A DNA stretch of 32,087 bases from the NCBI GenBank assembly GCA_046074885.1, contig JBJTPA010000014.1, positions 1 to 32,087 on the forward strand, in the 5' to 3' direction. The position numbers were made by a program, and so were the translations under genes. The first letter of the stretch is position 1, and each line of letters begins with the position of its first letter. The notes beneath the pieces are model-generated. The model made no database searches. It saw only the letters and a program-made list of their open reading frames with translations, and was not told where the DNA came from. This document shows positions 4,469 to 29,630 of this stretch, piece by piece. This DNA comes from Planctomycetaceae bacterium. Lineage in GTDB: Bacteria > Planctomycetota > Planctomycetia > Pirellulales > UBA1268.

Positions 4469-4498
4469 CACCAGAGTATGCCGGATGCCACACGCATG

Positions 4499-4566
4499 AT
4501 CCCATCGCTCGCGCTCCGGGCTTCTTGGCCGCTTCGTCAGGAAGCCCTGAGCGCCAGCGAGGGGAT
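4499..4566. repeat. Repeat family E: inverted REP-like doublet
   Basis: ATCCCATCGCTCGCGCTCCGGGCTTCTTG is the imperfect reverse complement of CAGGAAGCCCTGAGCGCCAGCGAGGGGAT; one arm recurs at 29602-29630. Confidence 0.8.
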
Positions 4567-7379: not shown

Positions 7380-7874
7380 GTGTCCGCCGTGCCGTCCACG
7401 CCCGACCCGCTCTTCGGCCGCCGCGACAGCGTGGAGCAGGTCGAGGAGGGCCGCGACCTCGCCCCCAAGTTCGACGCCCAGGGCCTCATTCCCTGCGTGA
7501 CCACCGACTTCGCCTCCGGGGAGGTGCTCATGGTGGCCGTGATGAACCGCGAGGCGCTCGCCAGGACGATCGAGACCGGCGAGGCCCACTACTGGAGCCG
7601 CAGCCGGCAGGTGCTCTGGCACAAGGGGGCCACGAGCGGCCTCGTCCAGAAGGTCGTGGAGATGCGCATCGACGACGACCAGGACTGCGTCTGGCTGCGG
7701 GTCGAGATTCCCGGCGGCGCCAGCTGCCACGTCGGCTACCGCTCGTGCTTCTACCGGAAGGTCCCGGTGGGCGCGGAGCGAAAGGCGGGCACGGCGCTCG
7801 AGTTCCTCGAGCACGAGAAGGCCTTCGACCCGAAGGCCGTCTACGGCGACGCGCCGAACCCGACGCAGTTGTGA
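7380..7874 (+). CDS. hisI: Phosphoribosyl-AMP cyclohydrolase
   Basis: [36 protein letters not shown]. Start approximate. Confidence 0.93.
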
Positions 7875-7919
7875 GTCGCGCCCTCGATCCCTGAGGTGCC
7901 GCTCGGCTCGTGCGGCTCC

Positions 7920-8052
7920 CACATGATCATCGCGCTGACGCGATCACCTCGTCTCGTGGTCCAGTCGCCTCGCGACTGGAATCCGGTCCCTGGATCGCCA
8001 GGGGAAATCCGGTTGCGAGGCAACCGGACCACGGGTTGGCCAGCGACCACAC
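7920..8052 (-). repeat. Repeat family A copy 1 (REPIN-like)
   Basis: Reverse complement closely matches 25376-25510; two inverted GTGG+hairpin units. Confidence 0.9.
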
Positions 8053-8103
8053 CTCGAGTTGGCGGCGGCGGATCACGCCCGAGGATCACGCGTGAGCCCC
8101 CGC

Positions 8104-8314
8104 CGAGCCCCCGTCTCACAGTTGGGGAGGTGAGGGGCCGACGAATGCCCTGAGAGCCGGCCTGTGCTGGCAAGCGCAGCCACGATGGCGAAGCGCAGGC
8201 AGCACGGAGTGAGCGAAGGGCAGGATGCCCGTAGCGAACGTCCGGCGACGGGGCAGCGGCGGTCCCGAACCGGCCACTCGTCCGGCGAGAGGGCGTGGGG
8301 AGCCCCGAGCCGGC
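8104..8314 (+). repeat. Repeat family B copy 1 (structured element with inserted hairpin and an extra 3' half)
   Basis: CAGTTGGGGAGGTGAGGGG..CCCTGAGAGCCGGC..GAGTGAGCGAAGGGCAGGATGCCCGtAGCGAACGTCCGGCGACGGGGC shared with 18640-18733. Confidence 0.85.
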
Positions 8315-8320
8315 GCCTCG

Positions 8321-9376
8321 TCACCGGTAGTGCTTCTGCACCCACTCCCGGTACGCGCCGCTCGTGACGTTCGCGACCCAGTCCTGGTGGTCGAGGTACC
8401 AGCGGACCGTCCTGCGGATGCCCGTCGCGAAGGTCTCCGCCGGCTTCCAGCCGAGGTCGCGGGCGATCTTGCGGGCGTCGATCGCGTAGCGGCGGTCGTG
8501 GCCGGGCCGGTCCGTGACGTAGGTGATCTGGTCCGCGTAGGGCCTTCGATCGGCCCGCGGCCGCTCCTCGTCGAGGATCGCGCACAGCGTGCGCACGACC
8601 TCGAGGTTGGGTTTTTCGCTGTCGCCGCCGACGTTGTAGACCTCGCCCGGGACGCCCGCCGCGAGGGCCCGGCGGATCGCGGCGCAGTGGTCGCCCACGT
8701 AGAGCCAGTCGCGGACCTGCATGCCGTCGCCGTAGATCGGCAGCGGCTTGCCTGCGAGCGCGTTGTGGATGACGAGCGGGATGAGCTTTTCCGGGAACTG
8801 GAAGGGGCCGTAATTGTTGGAGCAGTTCGTGGTCACCACCGGCAGGCCGTAGGTGTGGTGGTAGGCGCGGACGAGGTGGTCGCTGGCCGCCTTGCTCGCC
8901 GAGTAGGGGCTGTTGGGCTGGTACTGGTTGGTCTCCGCGAAGGCGGGGTCGCCGGGAGCGAGCGACCCGTAGACCTCGTCGGTCGAGACGTGGAGGAACC
9001 GGAAGGCGTCACGGGCGGCGCCGGCGAGCGAGCCCCAGTGGGTGCGGGCCGCCTCGAGCAGCCGGAAGGTCCCCACCACGTTGGTCGCGACGAAATCCTC
9101 GGGGCCGTGGATGGAGCGGTCCACGTGGCTCTCGGCGGCGAAGTGGACGACCGCGCGGACGGCGTGCTCGGCGAGCAGCCGCTCCACGAGGTCGCGGTCG
9201 CCGATGTCGCCGCGGACGAAGACGTGGCGGGCGTCGCCCTCGAGCGTGGCGAGGTTGGCGAGGTTGCCGGCGTAGGTGAGCTTGTCGAGGTTCACCACCG
9301 GCTCGCCGCCGCCGGCGAGCCAGTCGAGGACGAAGTTCGAGCCGATGAATCCGGCGCCGCCTGTGACGAGAATCAT
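8321..9376 (-). CDS. rfbB: dTDP-glucose 4,6-dehydratase
   Basis: ILVTGGAGFIGSNF, DKLTYAGN, HFAAESHVDRSI, STDEVYG, YSASKA, CSNNYGPFQFPEKLIP, DRPGHDRRYA. Confidence 0.97.
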   Translation of the reverse strand: MILVTGGAGFIGSNFVLDWLAGGGEPVVNLDKLTYAGNLANLATLEGDARHVFVRGDIGDRDLVERLLAEHAVRAVVHFAAESHVDRSIHGPEDFVATNVVGTFRLLEAARTHWGSLAGAARDAFRFLHVSTDEVYGSLAPGDPAFAETNQYQPNSPYSASKAASDHLVRAYHHTYGLPVVTTNCSNNYGPFQFPEKLIPLVIHNALAGKPLPIYGDGMQVRDWLYVGDHCAAIRRALAAGVPGEVYNVGGDSEKPNLEVVRTLCAILDEERPRADRRPYADQITYVTDRPGHDRRYAIDARKIARDLGWKPAETFATGIRRTVRWYLDHQDWVANVTSGAYREWVQKHYR

Positions 9377-11662: not shown

Positions 11663-12399
11663 TGCTGCGTCTTGGCGATGACGACCTGCGATCCGGCATG
11701 GATCAGGTCGTACGAGCCCTGCTTGAGCCGGAGGAACGCGTTGATCGCGGCGCCGGGGTTGTCCCCGGGCCGGTCGTAGTACTTCCAGAGGTAATCGTCG
11801 AGGATCATCACGCCGCCCACCGCGAGCGCCTCGAAGCCCAGCACGGCGTCGACCAGCACGTCGTCCGCGCGATGGGAACCGTCGATGTAGACGAGGTCGA
11901 AGCACTCCCGCGGCGTGCAGGCCGCGAAATAGGCCTGGGAGGTGCCCTTCCACTTCACCACCCGGTCGCCGTACCTCCGCGTATTGTGGTCGAACCGGGC
12001 CTCGAGTTCGTCGAGGGCGTCCGCCCGGCCGACGTGCTCGTCGGCCCCCTCCCAGGTGTCGACGCAGGTGATGACCGAGCCGGCGAGTTGGTCGAGGACG
12101 AACCGGCACGAGAGCCCCTCCCAGCTGCCAACTTCCAGCACGCGGATGCCCCGGCGCCCCGCGAGACCCTGCCGCTTGAAGATAGCCAGCCACATGGGGA
12201 CGTGTCGCAGGAACCACGTCTGGGAGATCCGCGCGGCGTCCAGGCTCGCCGCGAACCGCTCCCCGGCGTCGCGGTTCTCAGCCGCGGCGTGAGCGGCTTC
12301 GCGCCGGCCGCGCACCACGCGCCACATCATGAACCATGACATGCCCGATCGGCGCAGGAAGGCCACCGCCCCGAATTTTCGTATGATCGCGCGGAGCAT
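11623..12399 (-). CDS. Class I SAM-dependent methyltransferase (Methyltransf_24-like)
   Basis: LEVGSWEGLS, CVDTW, FDLVYIDGSH, GGVMILDDYLW. Start uncertain. Confidence 0.85.
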   Translation of the reverse strand: MLRAIIRKFGAVAFLRRSGMSWFMMWRVVRGRREAAHAAAENRDAGERFAASLDAARISQTWFLRHVPMWLAIFKRQGLAGRRGIRVLEVGSWEGLSCRFVLDQLAGSVITCVDTWEGADEHVGRADALDELEARFDHNTRRYGDRVVKWKGTSQAYFAACTPRECFDLVYIDGSHRADDVLVDAVLGFEALAVGGVMILDDYLWKYYDRPGDNPGAAINAFLRLKQGSYDLIHAGSQVVIAKTQHQADMPRAISGAK

Positions 12400-12475
12400 G
12401 GATTCGCCGATGGTTTTCCGATCGCCAGGCATGCGGTCGCTGTCGACACCTCGTGACCATCGTCCCGCCGCGGCG

Positions 12476-13024
12476 TCAGGCACGCGGCCGGAACGCCACG
12501 AGCCGCTCCGGCTTCGTCTCTAGTCGCGGCGGGCCGACGGCGCCGGTGTGGATGAGGTCGATGCAGTATGGGATGGCGGGAAAGACGGCGTCGAGGCATT
12601 CGCGGATACTCTTCGGCCGGCCCGGCAGGTTGACGACGAGCGCACGGCCACAGACGCCGGCCGTCTGCCGCGAGAGGATCGCCGTCGGCACGTGCGCGAG
12701 CGACACCTGCCGCATCCGCTCGCCGAAGCCGGGCAGGAGCTTCGCGCAGACGAGCTCCGTCGCCTCGGGTGTCACGTCGCGTGGCGCCGGCCCCGTGCCG
12801 CCGGTCGTCACGACCAGACACGAGCCCACGTCGGCCAGTTCGCGGATGGCGGCGGCGATCGCCTCGACCTCGTCGGGCACGAGTCGCTCACGAGCCTCCC
12901 AGGGCGAGGCGAGCACCTCGGCCAGGTAGGCCAGGATCGCCGGGCCGCCCTCGTCGGCGTAGACGCCGCTGCTGGCGCGGTCGGAGACGGTCACGATGCC
13001 GATGAGGGCCGGCGGCGGGTTCAT
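12476..13024 (-). CDS. mog: Molybdopterin adenylyltransferase
   Basis: TVSDRAS.G.Y.D..GP, TTGGTGPAPRDVTPEAT, PGFGE.MR, AILSRQ, NLPGRPKSI. Confidence 0.95.
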   Translation of the reverse strand: MNPPPALIGIVTVSDRASSGVYADEGGPAILAYLAEVLASPWEARERLVPDEVEAIAAAIRELADVGSCLVVTTGGTGPAPRDVTPEATELVCAKLLPGFGERMRQVSLAHVPTAILSRQTAGVCGRALVVNLPGRPKSIRECLDAVFPAIPYCIDLIHTGAVGPPRLETKPERLVAFRPRA

Positions 13025-13068
13025 GGCTGCGATAAGGTCCCGTGGTGTCTCGGCAGGGCCGCCGATGT

Positions 13069-13434
13069 TCAGTGCGGCCACTCGAACAGGCGGAGGCGGT
13101 TGCCGTCGGGGTCGGTGACGACGAGCTCGCGGAAGCCCTCGGGGTGGGCGGCGGGGGCGGCGACGTCGGCGCCCGAGCGGACGAGCCGCTCGTGGGCGGC
13201 TTCGAGGTCCGAGACCTCGAAGCCGAGGCTCCAGCGGCCGCTCGCCGGCGGGGCGGCCGGACGCGACAGGATCGCCAGCCGCGTGTCGCCGGCGGCGAGC
13301 AGCGCGTAACCGTCGTCGATGACGCGGACGAGCACCCGCAGGCCGACGACGTGGCGGTACCACTCGACGAGTTCGGCCCACCGCGCGGTCCGCAGTTCCA
13401 CGCTGAACAGCGACGGCTGGTCGGCGGTGGTCAC
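13069..13434 (-). CDS. VOC/glyoxalase family protein
   Basis: WYRHVVGL, LGFEVSDLEAAHERL, FRELVVTDPDGNRLRL. Start uncertain. Confidence 0.82.
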   Translation of the reverse strand: MTTADQPSLFSVELRTARWAELVEWYRHVVGLRVLVRVIDDGYALLAAGDTRLAILSRPAAPPASGRWSLGFEVSDLEAAHERLVRSGADVAAPAAHPEGFRELVVTDPDGNRLRLFEWPH

Positions 13435-18612: not shown

Positions 18613-18755
18613 CCGAGCCCCCGCCTACGCTCCCTGTGGCAGTTGGGGAGGTGAGGGGCTGCCCATAGCCCTGAGAGCCGGCATCGAGTGAGCGAAGGGC
18701 AGGATGCCCGAAGCGAACGTCCGGCGACGGGGCATGGGTAGCCCTGAATCGGCGG
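18613..18755 (+). repeat. Repeat family B copy 2
   Basis: Core shared with 8119-8254; closing stem GGGCTGCCCAT/ATGGGTAGCCC; preceded by a separate long hairpin at about 18565-18610. Confidence 0.85.
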
Positions 18756-20658: not shown

Positions 20659-21753
20659 ATGAAAACCAGTCCCCCGCCGGTCACCTCGTCCGCCGCCCCG
20701 ATGCCGCACGCGCTCGAGCCCGGTGACGCCCTCGACCGGGCCGTCGCGGACCTGGGCCAGCCCGCGTGGCGTGCCGGCGCCGTCCGCCGCTGGCTGTTCG
20801 CGCGGCGGGCCGAATCCTTCGCCGACATGACCGACTTGCCTGCGGGCCTGCGCGACCAGCTCGCCGACCGGTTCGCGGTCTGGACGACCTCCGTCGCGGC
20901 CCACACCCGCGCCGACGACGGCACGGAGAAGCTCCTCCTCGAACTTGCCGACGGGCAGCGGATCGAGTGCGTGCTCCTGCGCGAGCGGCGGCCCGACGGC
21001 CAGCGCCGCACCGCCTGCATCAGCACGCAGGTCGGCTGCGCGATGGGCTGCGTGTTCTGCGCCAGCGGCATCGACGGCGTGGTCCGCAACCTCACGTCGG
21101 GCGAGATCCTCGAGCAGCTCCTGCGGCTCACGCGGCTCCTGCCGGCCGACGAGCGGCTCAGCCACGTGGTCGTGATGGGCATGGGCGAGCCGCTGGCGAA
21201 CCTCGACCGGCTCCTGCCCGCGCTCGCCGTGGCCCGCGATCCCGACGGCCTGGGCATCTCGCCGCGCCGGATCACGATCTCGACGGTGGGTTTGCCTCCG
21301 GCCATCGACCGCCTCGCGACCGAGGCCCCCGACTACCACCTCGCCGTCTCGCTCCACGCGGCCACCGACGAGCTCCGCACCCGGCTCGTGCCGGTGAACA
21401 AGTCGATCGGGATCGACGCGGTGCTCGCCGCGGCCGACCGCTACTGGGAGGCGTCGGGCCGGCGGCTGACGTTCGAGTACGTGCTCCTGGGCGGCGTCAA
21501 CGACGCGCCGGCCGACGCCGATTCGCTCGTGCGGCTGCTCGCGGGCCGCGCGCCGCTCGTCAACGTCATCCCCTACAACCCCGTCGCCGACATGCCCTGG
21601 CGGGAGCCCGCGGCCCACGACCGGGAGCGGTTCCTTGCCGCGCTCCGCGCGGCCGGGGTCAACGTGCAGGTGCGGCACCGCAAGGGGGCGCGGATCGATG
21701 CGGCCTGCGGCCAACTGCGGCGTCTCGCCGTGGTGCGGCCCGCGGCCACCTGA
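20659..21753 (+). CDS. rlmN: Dual-specificity RNA methyltransferase RlmN (radical SAM)
   Basis: CISTQVGCAMGCVFC, MGMGEPL, ISTVG, SLHA, FEYVLL, IDAACGQL. Start at 20659 or 20701. Confidence 0.96.
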   Translation: MKTSPPPVTSSAAPMPHALEPGDALDRAVADLGQPAWRAGAVRRWLFARRAESFADMTDLPAGLRDQLADRFAVWTTSVAAHTRADDGTEKLLLELADGQRIECVLLRERRPDGQRRTACISTQVGCAMGCVFCASGIDGVVRNLTSGEILEQLLRLTRLLPADERLSHVVVMGMGEPLANLDRLLPALAVARDPDGLGISPRRITISTVGLPPAIDRLATEAPDYHLAVSLHAATDELRTRLVPVNKSIGIDAVLAAADRYWEASGRRLTFEYVLLGGVNDAPADADSLVRLLAGRAPLVNVIPYNPVADMPWREPAAHDRERFLAALRAAGVNVQVRHRKGARIDAACGQLRRLAVVRPAAT

Positions 21754-21774
21754 CCCGCGGGCGCCGCCCGCCGC

Positions 21775-21852
21775 GTGGGCCGGTTGCCTCGCAACCGGTA
21801 GTCGCTGTCGATCCACGGGCCGGATTCCAGTCGCGAGCGACTGGGCCACGAG
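21775..21852 (+). repeat. Repeat family A copy 2
   Basis: GTGGGCCGGTTGCCTCGCAACCGG..TCGATCCA..CCGGATTCCAGTCGCGA-GCGACTGGGCCACGAG, matching copies 1 and 3. Confidence 0.9.
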
Positions 21853-21925
21853 AAGAGCCGATCATGCCTCGAGCGACTGGGCCACGAGAAGAGCCGATCA
21901 TGCCTCGAGCGACTGGGCCACGAGA
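21834..21925 (+). repeat. 36-bp tandem repeat, about 2.5 units
   Basis: Unit CGAGCGACTGGGCCACGAGAAGAGCCGATCATGCCT at 21834 and 21870, partial at 21906. Confidence 0.92.
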
Positions 21926-23327: not shown

Positions 23328-23428
23328 CTGTCCGTGGACAAAGCCCTCCGTGGCCTTCGTTTACGTGTTCGACCGCGCGACAAGCCGAGGTTTTCGCGGG
23401 TCGAAGGTCGCCGCATCGTGCGGCGGGC
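23327..23428 (+). repeat. Repeat family C, uninterrupted and 3'-truncated copy (MITE-like)
   Basis: Aligns with 25064-25090 joined to 25704-25780; hairpins TCGACC..GGTCGA and CGCCGC..GCGGCG. Confidence 0.8.
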
Positions 23429-25059: not shown

Positions 25060-25189
25060 CGTAGCTGCCCGTGGAAGAAGCCCCCCATGGCAATCCTGTT
25101 CGGCACGGGATGTGCGCATCGGAAGCCGGACGATCCAGACGGACTGTGGCGAGGTGCGCCCTGGTCGGCGGAGCGGTACGGTGCCCGCC

Positions 25190-25370
25190 ATGGCCGGACC
25201 GACGAAGCGCGAGATCCGCTATCAGGACGTGCAGGGGCCGAAGTGCCTGCGGACGATGCGTCCGCTGCTTTCGCGACTGCGGAAGGTGGGTGCCGAACGC
25301 GACCGAGCCGGCAATCGGCGGCTGTTCATGGATCAGTACCGCGCACTGATCCTGATGTCGCCGTTCAGCC
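25190..25370 (+). pseudogene. Transposase N-terminal fragment (IS4-like)
   Basis: MAGPTKREIRYQDVQGPKCLRTMRPLLSRLRKVGAERDRAGNRRLFMDQYRALILMSPFS resembles, from recall, the N-terminus of planctomycete IS4 transposases (G.ERDRAGNR.LF.DQY). Similarity ends where repeat A starts; no DDE domain. Confidence 0.72.
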
Positions 25371-25375
25371 TTGAT

Positions 25376-25510
25376 GCGTGGTCGCAGGCCAACCCGTGGT
25401 CCGGTTGCCTCGCAACCGGATGTTCCCTGTCGATCCAAGAACCGGACTCCAGTCGCGAGGCGACTGGGCCACGAGGCGAGGTGATCACGTCAGCGCGAGG
25501 ATCAGGTGTG
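25376..25510 (+). repeat. Repeat family A copy 3
   Basis: Reverse complement of 7920-8052 with scattered substitutions. Confidence 0.9.
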
Positions 25511-25526
25511 ACCCGAAGAACTCAGC

Positions 25527-25625
25527 GAGGGGCCGCCCATCCCCTCGAGACGTCTTCGAGCGAGCGTAGCCCAGGATGACCGCAGCGAGCGTCCGGCGAG
25601 GGGGTGTGGGCAGCCCCGAGCCGGT
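25527..25625 (+). repeat. Repeat family B copy 3 (diverged)
   Basis: GGGGCCGCCCAT-CCCCTCG..GAGCGAGCGTAGCCCAGGATGACCGCAGCGAGCGTCCGG-CGAGGGG..GTGGGCAGCCCC-GAGCCGG. Confidence 0.7.
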
Positions 25626-25815
25626 TGGGCGAGTTGGCCAGGTTCACAAGGGAGCTTCCCCACGAGGAGGCAATCGCCGTGCCGAACAGGATTGCCTCCA
25701 TGGCCTTTTTTCACTTCATCGGCCGGTCGAAAAGCCGAGGTTTTCGACGGTCGATGATCGCCGCTTCCTGCGGCGGCGGACTTTTTCCACAGTCTGCTCG
25801 CGCGGGCGAACCGGC

Positions 25816-29535: not shown

Positions 29536-29601
29536 CGGATGCGCCGGCGCGTTGCCCGGCAGTTTCCGTGCGCTACAATTGCGGGAACTATCGGCGCACG
29601 G

Positions 29602-29630
29602 TCCCGTCGCTCGCGCTCCGGGCTTCCTGG
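29602..29630. repeat. Repeat family E, single arm
   Basis: TCCCGTCGCTCGCGCTCCGGGCTTCCTGG nearly identical to 4500-4528. Confidence 0.8.

Follow-up and report, generated by a model that had tools for sequence, protein, structure and literature searches.

The window (the whole 32,087-nt stretch analyzed) contained three copies of an intergenic repeat, here called family B. All three were located between convergent genes, as the first-pass annotation had claimed and our gene calls bore out: copy 1 in the spacer between hisI and a GDP-mannose dehydratase gene, copy 2 between a class IV aminotransferase gene and the SpoVG gene, and copy 3 between the RsmE gene and a DUF1559 gene. The positions first reported for them (8104-8275, 18613-18755, and 25527-25625) were also correct. 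Each was recovered, on the plus strand, by R1, the covariance model that the same annotation had proposed building from genomic copies and that we built from 58 full ones. According to R1, the structured cores were 8134-8266 (116.9 bits), 18655-18745 (82.0 bits), and 25529-25617 (67.5 bits); the best antisense match in the window scored 19.6 bits. The wider bounds given earlier for copies 1 and 2 took in a 40-nt 5′ leader common to both.

Copy 1 (8134..8266, plus strand; R1 E = 4.7e-21) was a full, three-armed form of 133 nt and supplied the first row of A1, the alignment of the 58 full copies (mean column identity, 75%). Its outer stem P1 was formed by 8134-8145 paired with 8255-8266. Arm 1 was a long stem with hairpin H1 at its tip (approximately 8174-8196, with the loop CGA at 8183-8185), and arm 2 was hairpin H2 (approximately 8209-8239, with the loop GGA at 8223-8225), all on the plus strand. 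The A1 columns also showed a near-invariant 15-nt 3′ box, GCGAACGTCCGGCGA (8234..8248, plus strand), positioned after H2 and before the outer stem's 3′ strand. The minimum free energy of copy 1 folded as RNA was -76.8 kcal/mol (z = -4.96), compared with -60.3 kcal/mol (z = -1.77) for the minus strand. Its 5′ leader (8094..8133, plus strand) was common to copies 1 and 2 and to other copies of the same subtype, and belonged to direct repeat D10 (8094-8161 vs. 18615-18682, 81% identical). Leaders of this type were also found 5′ of copies on contigs C328 and C145 and in the related genome G044.

The extra 3′ half reported at 8279-8314 was present as well. It was a solo 3′ arm of a different subtype (8279..8314, plus strand), located 12 nt past copy 1 and adjoining the dehydratase stop codon at 8321. 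Over 35 nt it shared 91% identity with 25590-25624, the 3′ arm of copy 3, and its identity to sequences on other contigs reached 97%. Solo 3′ arms starting at the 3′ box were found in contigs C144, C236, C249, and C327.

Copy 2 (18655..18745, plus strand) was a short form of 91 nt, consisting of the outer stem and H2 only; the H1 arm was missing, with 3 nt in place of 45 model positions. Its fold was nevertheless marked (RNA minimum free energy, -57.8 kcal/mol; z = -7.14). Its 5′ leader (18615..18654, plus strand) was the second member of D10, and a longer similar stretch started in the 18540s; the sequence 5′ of copy 2 was similar to that 5′ of the G044 copy after hisI. Copy 3 (25529..25617, plus strand) was a decayed short form of 89 nt. 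The first-pass annotation had listed it alongside the other copies. It was present and had a structured core, but the stem of H2, its apical hairpin, was broken, with non-standard pairs, and its plus strand folded no better than its minus strand (-49.7 vs. -51.8 kcal/mol). The 3′ tail of copy 3, which starts GAGCCGGTTGGGCGAG (25618..25640, plus strand), was common to its subtype in a flank listing of 70 copies. The same tail was found on both outer sides of the head-to-head dimers described below.

The claim that the element is multicopy was confirmed by an nhmmer search of the whole assembly (2.77 Mb, 344 contigs, 72.5% G+C, 86% completeness), which yielded 142 core matches on 96 of the 344 contigs, 70 on the plus strand and 72 on the minus strand. 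The assembly thus carries at least 142 family B copies, and many of the matches were at contig ends. Each element was delimited by its own outer stem. Lengths clustered at 130-133 nt, 89-91 nt, and approximately 156-158 nt; the short units of 89-91 nt were without one arm, and the longer units had an extra hairpin module.

A1 and the folds of single sequences agreed on a three-way junction. The outer stem was 12-16 bp or more and was followed by shorter inner helices, from which the long stem with H1 (arm 1) and H2 (arm 2) emerged. H1 and H2 were the same module: a G-C/C-G clamp, a 3 × 3 internal loop that was mostly GNA/GNA, a stem of 4-5 bp of free sequence, and a GGA loop. GGA was present in 107 of 116 loops; 68 fitted A(N)GGA, and 45 were CAGGATG. 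CGTC was invariant within the 3′ box, but it lay inside the element. The word CnGA was found 5′ of H2 in most subtypes, with low information content.

The compensatory stem changes first noticed in the window were real and general. RNAalifold applied to A1 gave 35 pairs, 18 of which showed double-sided changes that kept the pair. In a hand-drawn structure of 46 pairs, 92.2% of the cells of the 58 full copies were paired, compared with 80.2% after column shuffles and 32.8-40.4% in slid controls, in which the partners were moved by 1-3 columns. Both sides changed in 27 of the 46 pairs (16.0 ± 1.7 in shuffles), and 66 further pair types were observed (51.7 in shuffles). None of 500 shuffles reached the observed value for covarying pairs or for pair types. 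These two counts are the robust measures in A1, in which a single change can be counted many times because the rows are paralogues of few subfamilies. The covariation supports the proposal that selection acts on the fold rather than on the sequence.

The fold was also strand-specific. Wobble pairs were frequent, as had been noted, and they were one-sided (104 G.T cells vs. 16 A.C cells). In every one of the 58 copies, the sense strand was the more stable one whether RNA or DNA parameters were used, with mean energies for sense and antisense of -80.3 vs. -68.3 kcal/mol (RNA) and -40.5 vs. -35.2 kcal/mol (DNA). Selection on the fold of one strand is therefore supported.

CsrA sites are A(N)GGA motifs in hairpin loops, and CsrB carries CAGGAUG repeats. 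The constant loops on variable stems, the loop counts given above, and the large excess of G.U-type over A.C pairs would all be expected if family B worked as RNA, its sense hairpin loops (one to three per copy) binding or titrating CsrA/RsmA and tying 3′ UTRs to CsrA. All 31 genomes of the genus that were searched had CsrA (PF02599) above the cut-off, with 1-5 matches each and 3 in the assembly. The structural part of this argument does not discriminate, however, between the two nucleic acids: G.T pairs and GNA loops are stable in DNA too, and DNA parameters also favored the sense strand. In addition, neither a promoter nor a U-rich terminator was evident around the copies, their orientation was indifferent to the neighboring genes, and a given site could hold a copy in one species and lack it in another (both described below). 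We consider the CsrA reading unlikely. A long shot, less probable still, is that family B is a dispersed RNA module with CsrA-type A(N)GGA loops that has been conserved in uncultured Pirellulales-like planctomycetes of at least 11 genera. If that were true, hundreds of copies in transcribed spacers would make up a genome-wide layer of CsrA binding (a sponge or 3′-end control), and mobility would be a means of bringing genes under CsrA control.

The three CsrA genes of the assembly were located at C332 12847-13002, C171 13291-13437, and C272 15100-15273. From one to five CsrA genes per genome is many for genomes of 3-4 Mb.

Gene calls over the assembly, made with a codon-usage caller, comprised 2431 genes (88% coding). 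Among the 142 matches, 58 were in tandem, 44 in convergent, and 5 in divergent spacers; 3 were within called genes and 32 at contig edges. When matches were grouped, 88 clusters could be compared with expectation: 37 were convergent, 47 tandem, and 4 divergent (expected from how many spacers of each type there were, 14.4, 56.1, and 17.5, respectively; chi-square test, P = 5e-11). Family B copies favor convergent spacers and avoid divergent ones. Their orientation, however, is unrelated to the direction of transcription, as single copies between tandem genes were in the same direction as the genes in 19 cases and in the opposite direction in 17. Because of this ratio, about half of the copies in tandem spacers would be read antisense, which argues against a function in the transcript. 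Orientation was not linked to local GC skew either (22 of 48 plus copies and 29 of 46 minus copies in positive skew; Mann-Whitney test, P = 0.29); GC skew served as a proxy for replication direction, with which a mechanism based on the lagging-strand template would predict a link.

Clusters comprised 94 singles, 18 head-to-head dimers (-+), no tail-to-tail dimers (+-), and 6 combinations of a full and a partial copy. The dimers usually consisted of two different subtypes, with the same short tail at both outer ends. Family B copies also formed mosaics with other repeats. A search of the assembly with arm profiles gave 83 5′ arms and 140 3′ arms, and these numbers are unreliable as counts of solo arms because most apparent solo arms had a diverged 5′ arm on inspection; the evidence for solo or partial arms is thus limited to the six full-plus-partial clusters. 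In three arm pairs of the assembly, the two arms were separated by over 400 nt (1701, 4744, and 4778 nt).

The excess of convergent clusters could also mean that the host keeps the copies for a role at the DNA level, as sites for gyrase or nucleoid proteins or as barriers between convergent units, as has been proposed for REP/BIME. The invariant 15-nt box and the strong sequence conservation across 11 genera fit such a role. A site in duplex DNA, however, would not give the one-strand bias of G.T over A.C pairs, most relatives had the same spacers without the element, and the range of copy numbers within one family, from 0 to more than 56 per genome, argues against an essential general role. 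We regard this explanation as very unlikely.

All 24 other genomes examined in the genus had R1 matches. Within the taxonomic family, matches were found in 51 of the 60 other genomes, representing 11 of 12 genera. The number of matches per genome across the family ranged from 0 to at least 56. Scores in other genera were as high as those of the copies in the genome under study (up to 146 bits). In other families of the same order, R1 had no match in 16 genomes.

Related loci were compared for the three spacers. The aminotransferase-SpoVG pair was confirmed as convergent in 17 of 20 related loci. Its spacer was 3-45 nt in 15 related species and 280 nt in the window; it was 150 and 231 nt in two relatives with other inserts, and in genome G052 it held a family B copy in the opposite orientation, cut by the contig end. 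A metagenome scan for 20 nt taken from where the aminotransferase gene ends returned 40 loci, none of them homologous. Downstream of hisI, G044 had a family B copy 81% identical to copy 1, and contigs of G052 broke at a family B copy; the corresponding spacers of G024 and G056 (approximately 107 and 233 nt) had no family B match. The RsmE-DUF1559 spacer was 187 nt in G044 compared with 766 nt in the window. For copy 1, identity was higher within the genome than at the same site in another species: its nearest paralogue in the assembly was 91% identical to it, compared with 81% for the G044 copy in the same position. The median nearest-neighbor identity within the genome was 0.93, and 13 pairs were at least 95% identical. 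From the spacer differences, the hisI and RsmE loci, and the identities between paralogues, it follows that family B is gained and lost on the time scale of species divergence. Target-site duplications, excision footprints, and exact ends were not definable at these loci, where the spacers of the relatives were too diverged to align.

These comparisons also bear on whether family B is a dead relic that spread once and is now immobile, its similarity upheld only by gene conversion and recombination. Decayed copies such as copy 3, the mosaics and solo arms (which suggest recombination between copies), and the lack of a linked enzyme or an autonomous partner (see below) would agree with this explanation. 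It is countered by the close similarity of many copies (the 13 pairs and the median just given), by the differences among species in insertion sites and orientations, and by the double-sided stem changes across subfamilies, which imply continued selection on source copies. Of the readings weighed here, a dead relic is the least probable.

Copy 3 was enclosed, together with a copy of a second repeat, family A, by the terminal inverted repeats of a derivative of a separate insertion sequence. The left 20-nt terminal repeat was at 25089..25108 (plus strand) and the right one at 25677..25696 (minus strand), together forming inverted repeat I16. The 20-nt repeat occurred 14 times in the assembly (≤3 mismatches), and 10 of the 14 occurrences abutted a family B hairpin exactly at its loop. 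At these junctions, a loop of 4-5 nt was duplicated, with its letters on both junctions. The DDE insertion sequence inserts loop-specifically into the GGA loops of family B. On contig C213, the terminal repeat bounded a remnant of a DDE transposase that was itself interrupted by a family A copy. The terminal repeat was found on contigs C213, C52, C146, C225, C231, C233, C252, and C303.

Several other repeats were observed beside these elements. Family A was approximately 146 nt long, with three short hairpins, and was present in the window at 7913-8058 and 25370-25515 (mutually inverted) and at 21738-21837. It lay directly 5′ of family B copies 1 and 3, oppositely oriented at the two sites, which were 88% complementary. 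Family A also inserts, since its copy on C213 sits within the DDE transposase remnant. At 21834-21905, a 36-nt unit related to the end of family A (72% identity to 25457-25492) was perfectly duplicated in tandem. An 82-nt direct repeat (23345-23426 and 25695-25776, 79% identical), beginning where the insertion-sequence derivative ends on the right, may be a duplicated flank or represent yet another repeat family. On contig C227, a remnant of an IS4/IS701-like transposase (12229-13134) ran into a family B copy without a 5′ arm; this site is a junction of two mobile elements.

A linked HUH, reverse transcriptase, or nuclease gene, for which the first-pass annotation had suggested looking, was not found next to family B copies in the assembly, and none of the candidates for a linked gene was a regular neighbor of the copies. 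In this 86%-complete assembly there were no matches to RVT_1 or to the TnpB zinc-ribbon domain, and no autonomous partner with the same ends as family B was found. The single DDE_Tnp_1 match had two in-frame TGA codons, and its terminal repeat was unrelated to the family B ends.

The assembly had one Y1 HUH gene, on contig C250, with scores below the Pfam and NCBIfam cut-offs. Its motifs (HVH, WWT, and Y----Q) fit the class 3 Y1 proteins of Quentin et al. 2018, which that paper (PMC6006769) describes as occurring mainly in Planctomycetes and as flanked by atypical hairpins. Among 40 other genomes of the genus, the gene was detected in 17, at most twice in each and often at contig ends; gaps in the assemblies may explain part of the 23 genomes, out of the 41 searched in the genus, in which it was not detected. 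The gene was present in 3 of 5 genomes rich in family B and in none of 5 genomes free of it. Given the few genomes compared and their relatedness, this co-occurrence is no more than suggestive.

The Y1 gene was rejected as a neighbor of family B: its flanks hold another multicopy repeat. Both flanks of the C250 gene carried a unit of approximately 84 nt, with two inverted arms of approximately 26 nt, that is not family B. In 19 Y1 loci, R1 gave only three weak matches (E = 0.06-0.97). The C250 gene with its flanking repeat resembles the REPtrons of class 3 Y1 genes described by Quentin et al. 2018 (PMC6006769). The flanking repeat was located on C250 at 16-99 and 692-774 and in the window at 4493-4565 and 29595-29630, and it matched very many contigs. 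Related species had their own versions of it around the same Y1 gene. Among candidate enzymes for family B, the class 3 Y1 protein is ranked first, with low confidence.

The first-pass annotation had assigned family B to no named family, and this held: a scan of the whole window against Rfam (release 15) at gathering thresholds gave no matches, and an E-value scan of 7850-8400 gave five, all with E ≥ 1.4. Literature searches, outside which lay the supplementary per-genome tables of REP types, found no published description of family B. An intrinsic terminator was ruled out because no T-run followed the stem. Small-protein coding, a CRISPR array, and an attC array were ruled out on anatomy, and integron attC sites also because the copies were scattered over 96 contigs between housekeeping genes, as single units or dimers. 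A retron or group II intron RNA was rejected with the absence of RVT_1 from the 86%-complete assembly. For a REP of the CGTC-tagged type, composed of the 3′ arm with its own tail hairpin, pairing would lie within the 3′ arm; A1 columns 139/140 covaried with the 5′ arm instead.

The REP/BIME/REPIN elements of Proteobacteria, serviced by RAYT (TnpA-REP, a Y1 HUH protein), were compared with family B as they are described by Di Nocera et al. 2013 (PMC3733652) and Quentin et al. 2018 (PMC6006769). Family B resembles them in its high copy number, its extragenic location mostly 3′ of genes, its hairpins, and its confinement to a lineage, and also in the predominance of head-to-head dimers (18 vs. 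0), the mosaics, and the fixed box by the stem. Unlike REP/REPIN units, simple hairpins of 20-40 nt, family B units are 89-141 nt long and form a three-way junction. Unlike the repeats of a REPtron, family B does not flank the Y1 gene of the assembly. It also shows no evident GTAG foot, and its CGTC is not at the position that defines CGTC-tagged REPs. Unit size and location beside the Y1 gene both belong to the definition of REP/REPIN, and family B departs from it in both.

Family B also shares features with systems other than REPs. ERIC/IRU elements are imperfect palindromes of approximately 127 bp in enterobacteria, and pneumococcal BOX elements are modular, with a variable number of boxB units. 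Family B is like both in size class, long imperfect palindrome, shorter and longer variants through lost or gained internal modules, location in spacers by gene ends, and one-strand fold; it differs in host phylum, and the likeness drawn here is one of form and location. To our knowledge, ERIC elements do not have a three-way junction bearing two identical loop modules. As in MITEs, the element is non-autonomous, its inverted ends of 12-16 bp are the outer stem, and it is present or absent between related genomes. Unlike in MITEs, the interior is conserved and structured. Comparison with the diverged spacers of relatives gave no target-site duplication, and the 86%-complete assembly no parent insertion sequence with matching ends.

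IS1397 and ISKpn1 are insertion sequences of the IS3 group that insert into REP loops. The DDE insertion sequence behaves similarly toward family B, with 10 of its 14 ends in GGA loops and the loop duplicated, but it belongs to the DDE_Tnp_1 group, and family B is the target in this relation, not the mover. CsrB and RsmZ are single genes with a promoter and a terminator that titrate CsrA. Family B is like them in having several A(N)GGA hairpin loops in genomes with CsrA genes, but unlike them it is a dispersed repeat without orientation preference. Overall, family B is a well-structured, widespread repeat of a known kind, REP/BIME-, ERIC-, or BOX-like, and not a new principle.

We therefore read family B as a non-autonomous, structured, interspersed mobile repeat of the REP/BIME, ERIC, BOX, or MITE kind, with a folded form that is probably single-stranded DNA (probability of roughly 0.7). 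The earlier description as a structured RNA or single-stranded DNA element stands as far as the structured fold is concerned. Between its two options, mobility as single-stranded DNA is favored because orientation is indifferent, copies are present or absent at orthologous sites, and dimers and mosaics occur; the RNA alternative is kept at lower weight. We infer, rather than observe, both that DNA and not RNA is the selected form and which enzyme acts on it. Some points could reflect a function for the host, in particular the high R1 scores in other genera and the near-fixed GGA loops.

The mobile-repeat reading suggests the following mechanism. New copies would derive from source copies obliged to keep the fold, the loops, and the 15-nt 3′ box, and this is proposed as the reason why the stems covary while the loops and the box are fixed. 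The folded form would be single-stranded DNA handled by an enzyme acting in trans, possibly the class 3 Y1 HUH protein that is encoded in many of these genomes, possibly another. Copies survive 3′ of genes, singly or as head-to-head dimers, and their GGA loops are themselves used as targets by another insertion sequence.

Family B is a large, apparently unnamed repeat family whose fold is unusually elaborate and well supported. Its copies take up an appreciable part of the spacers across a whole family of uncultured planctomycetes, and numerous contigs in these assemblies terminate within or beside them. A model of the R1 type would let annotators mask the element, avoid repeated calls of new RNAs, and help to explain broken assemblies. 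The genomes also offer a system outside Proteobacteria in which a structured repeat, itself unlinked to any transposase found, occurs alongside a separate Y1 gene flanked by a repeat of its own and an insertion sequence that targets the loops of the structured repeat. That combination makes the spread of such repeats, and their reuse by the host, testable.
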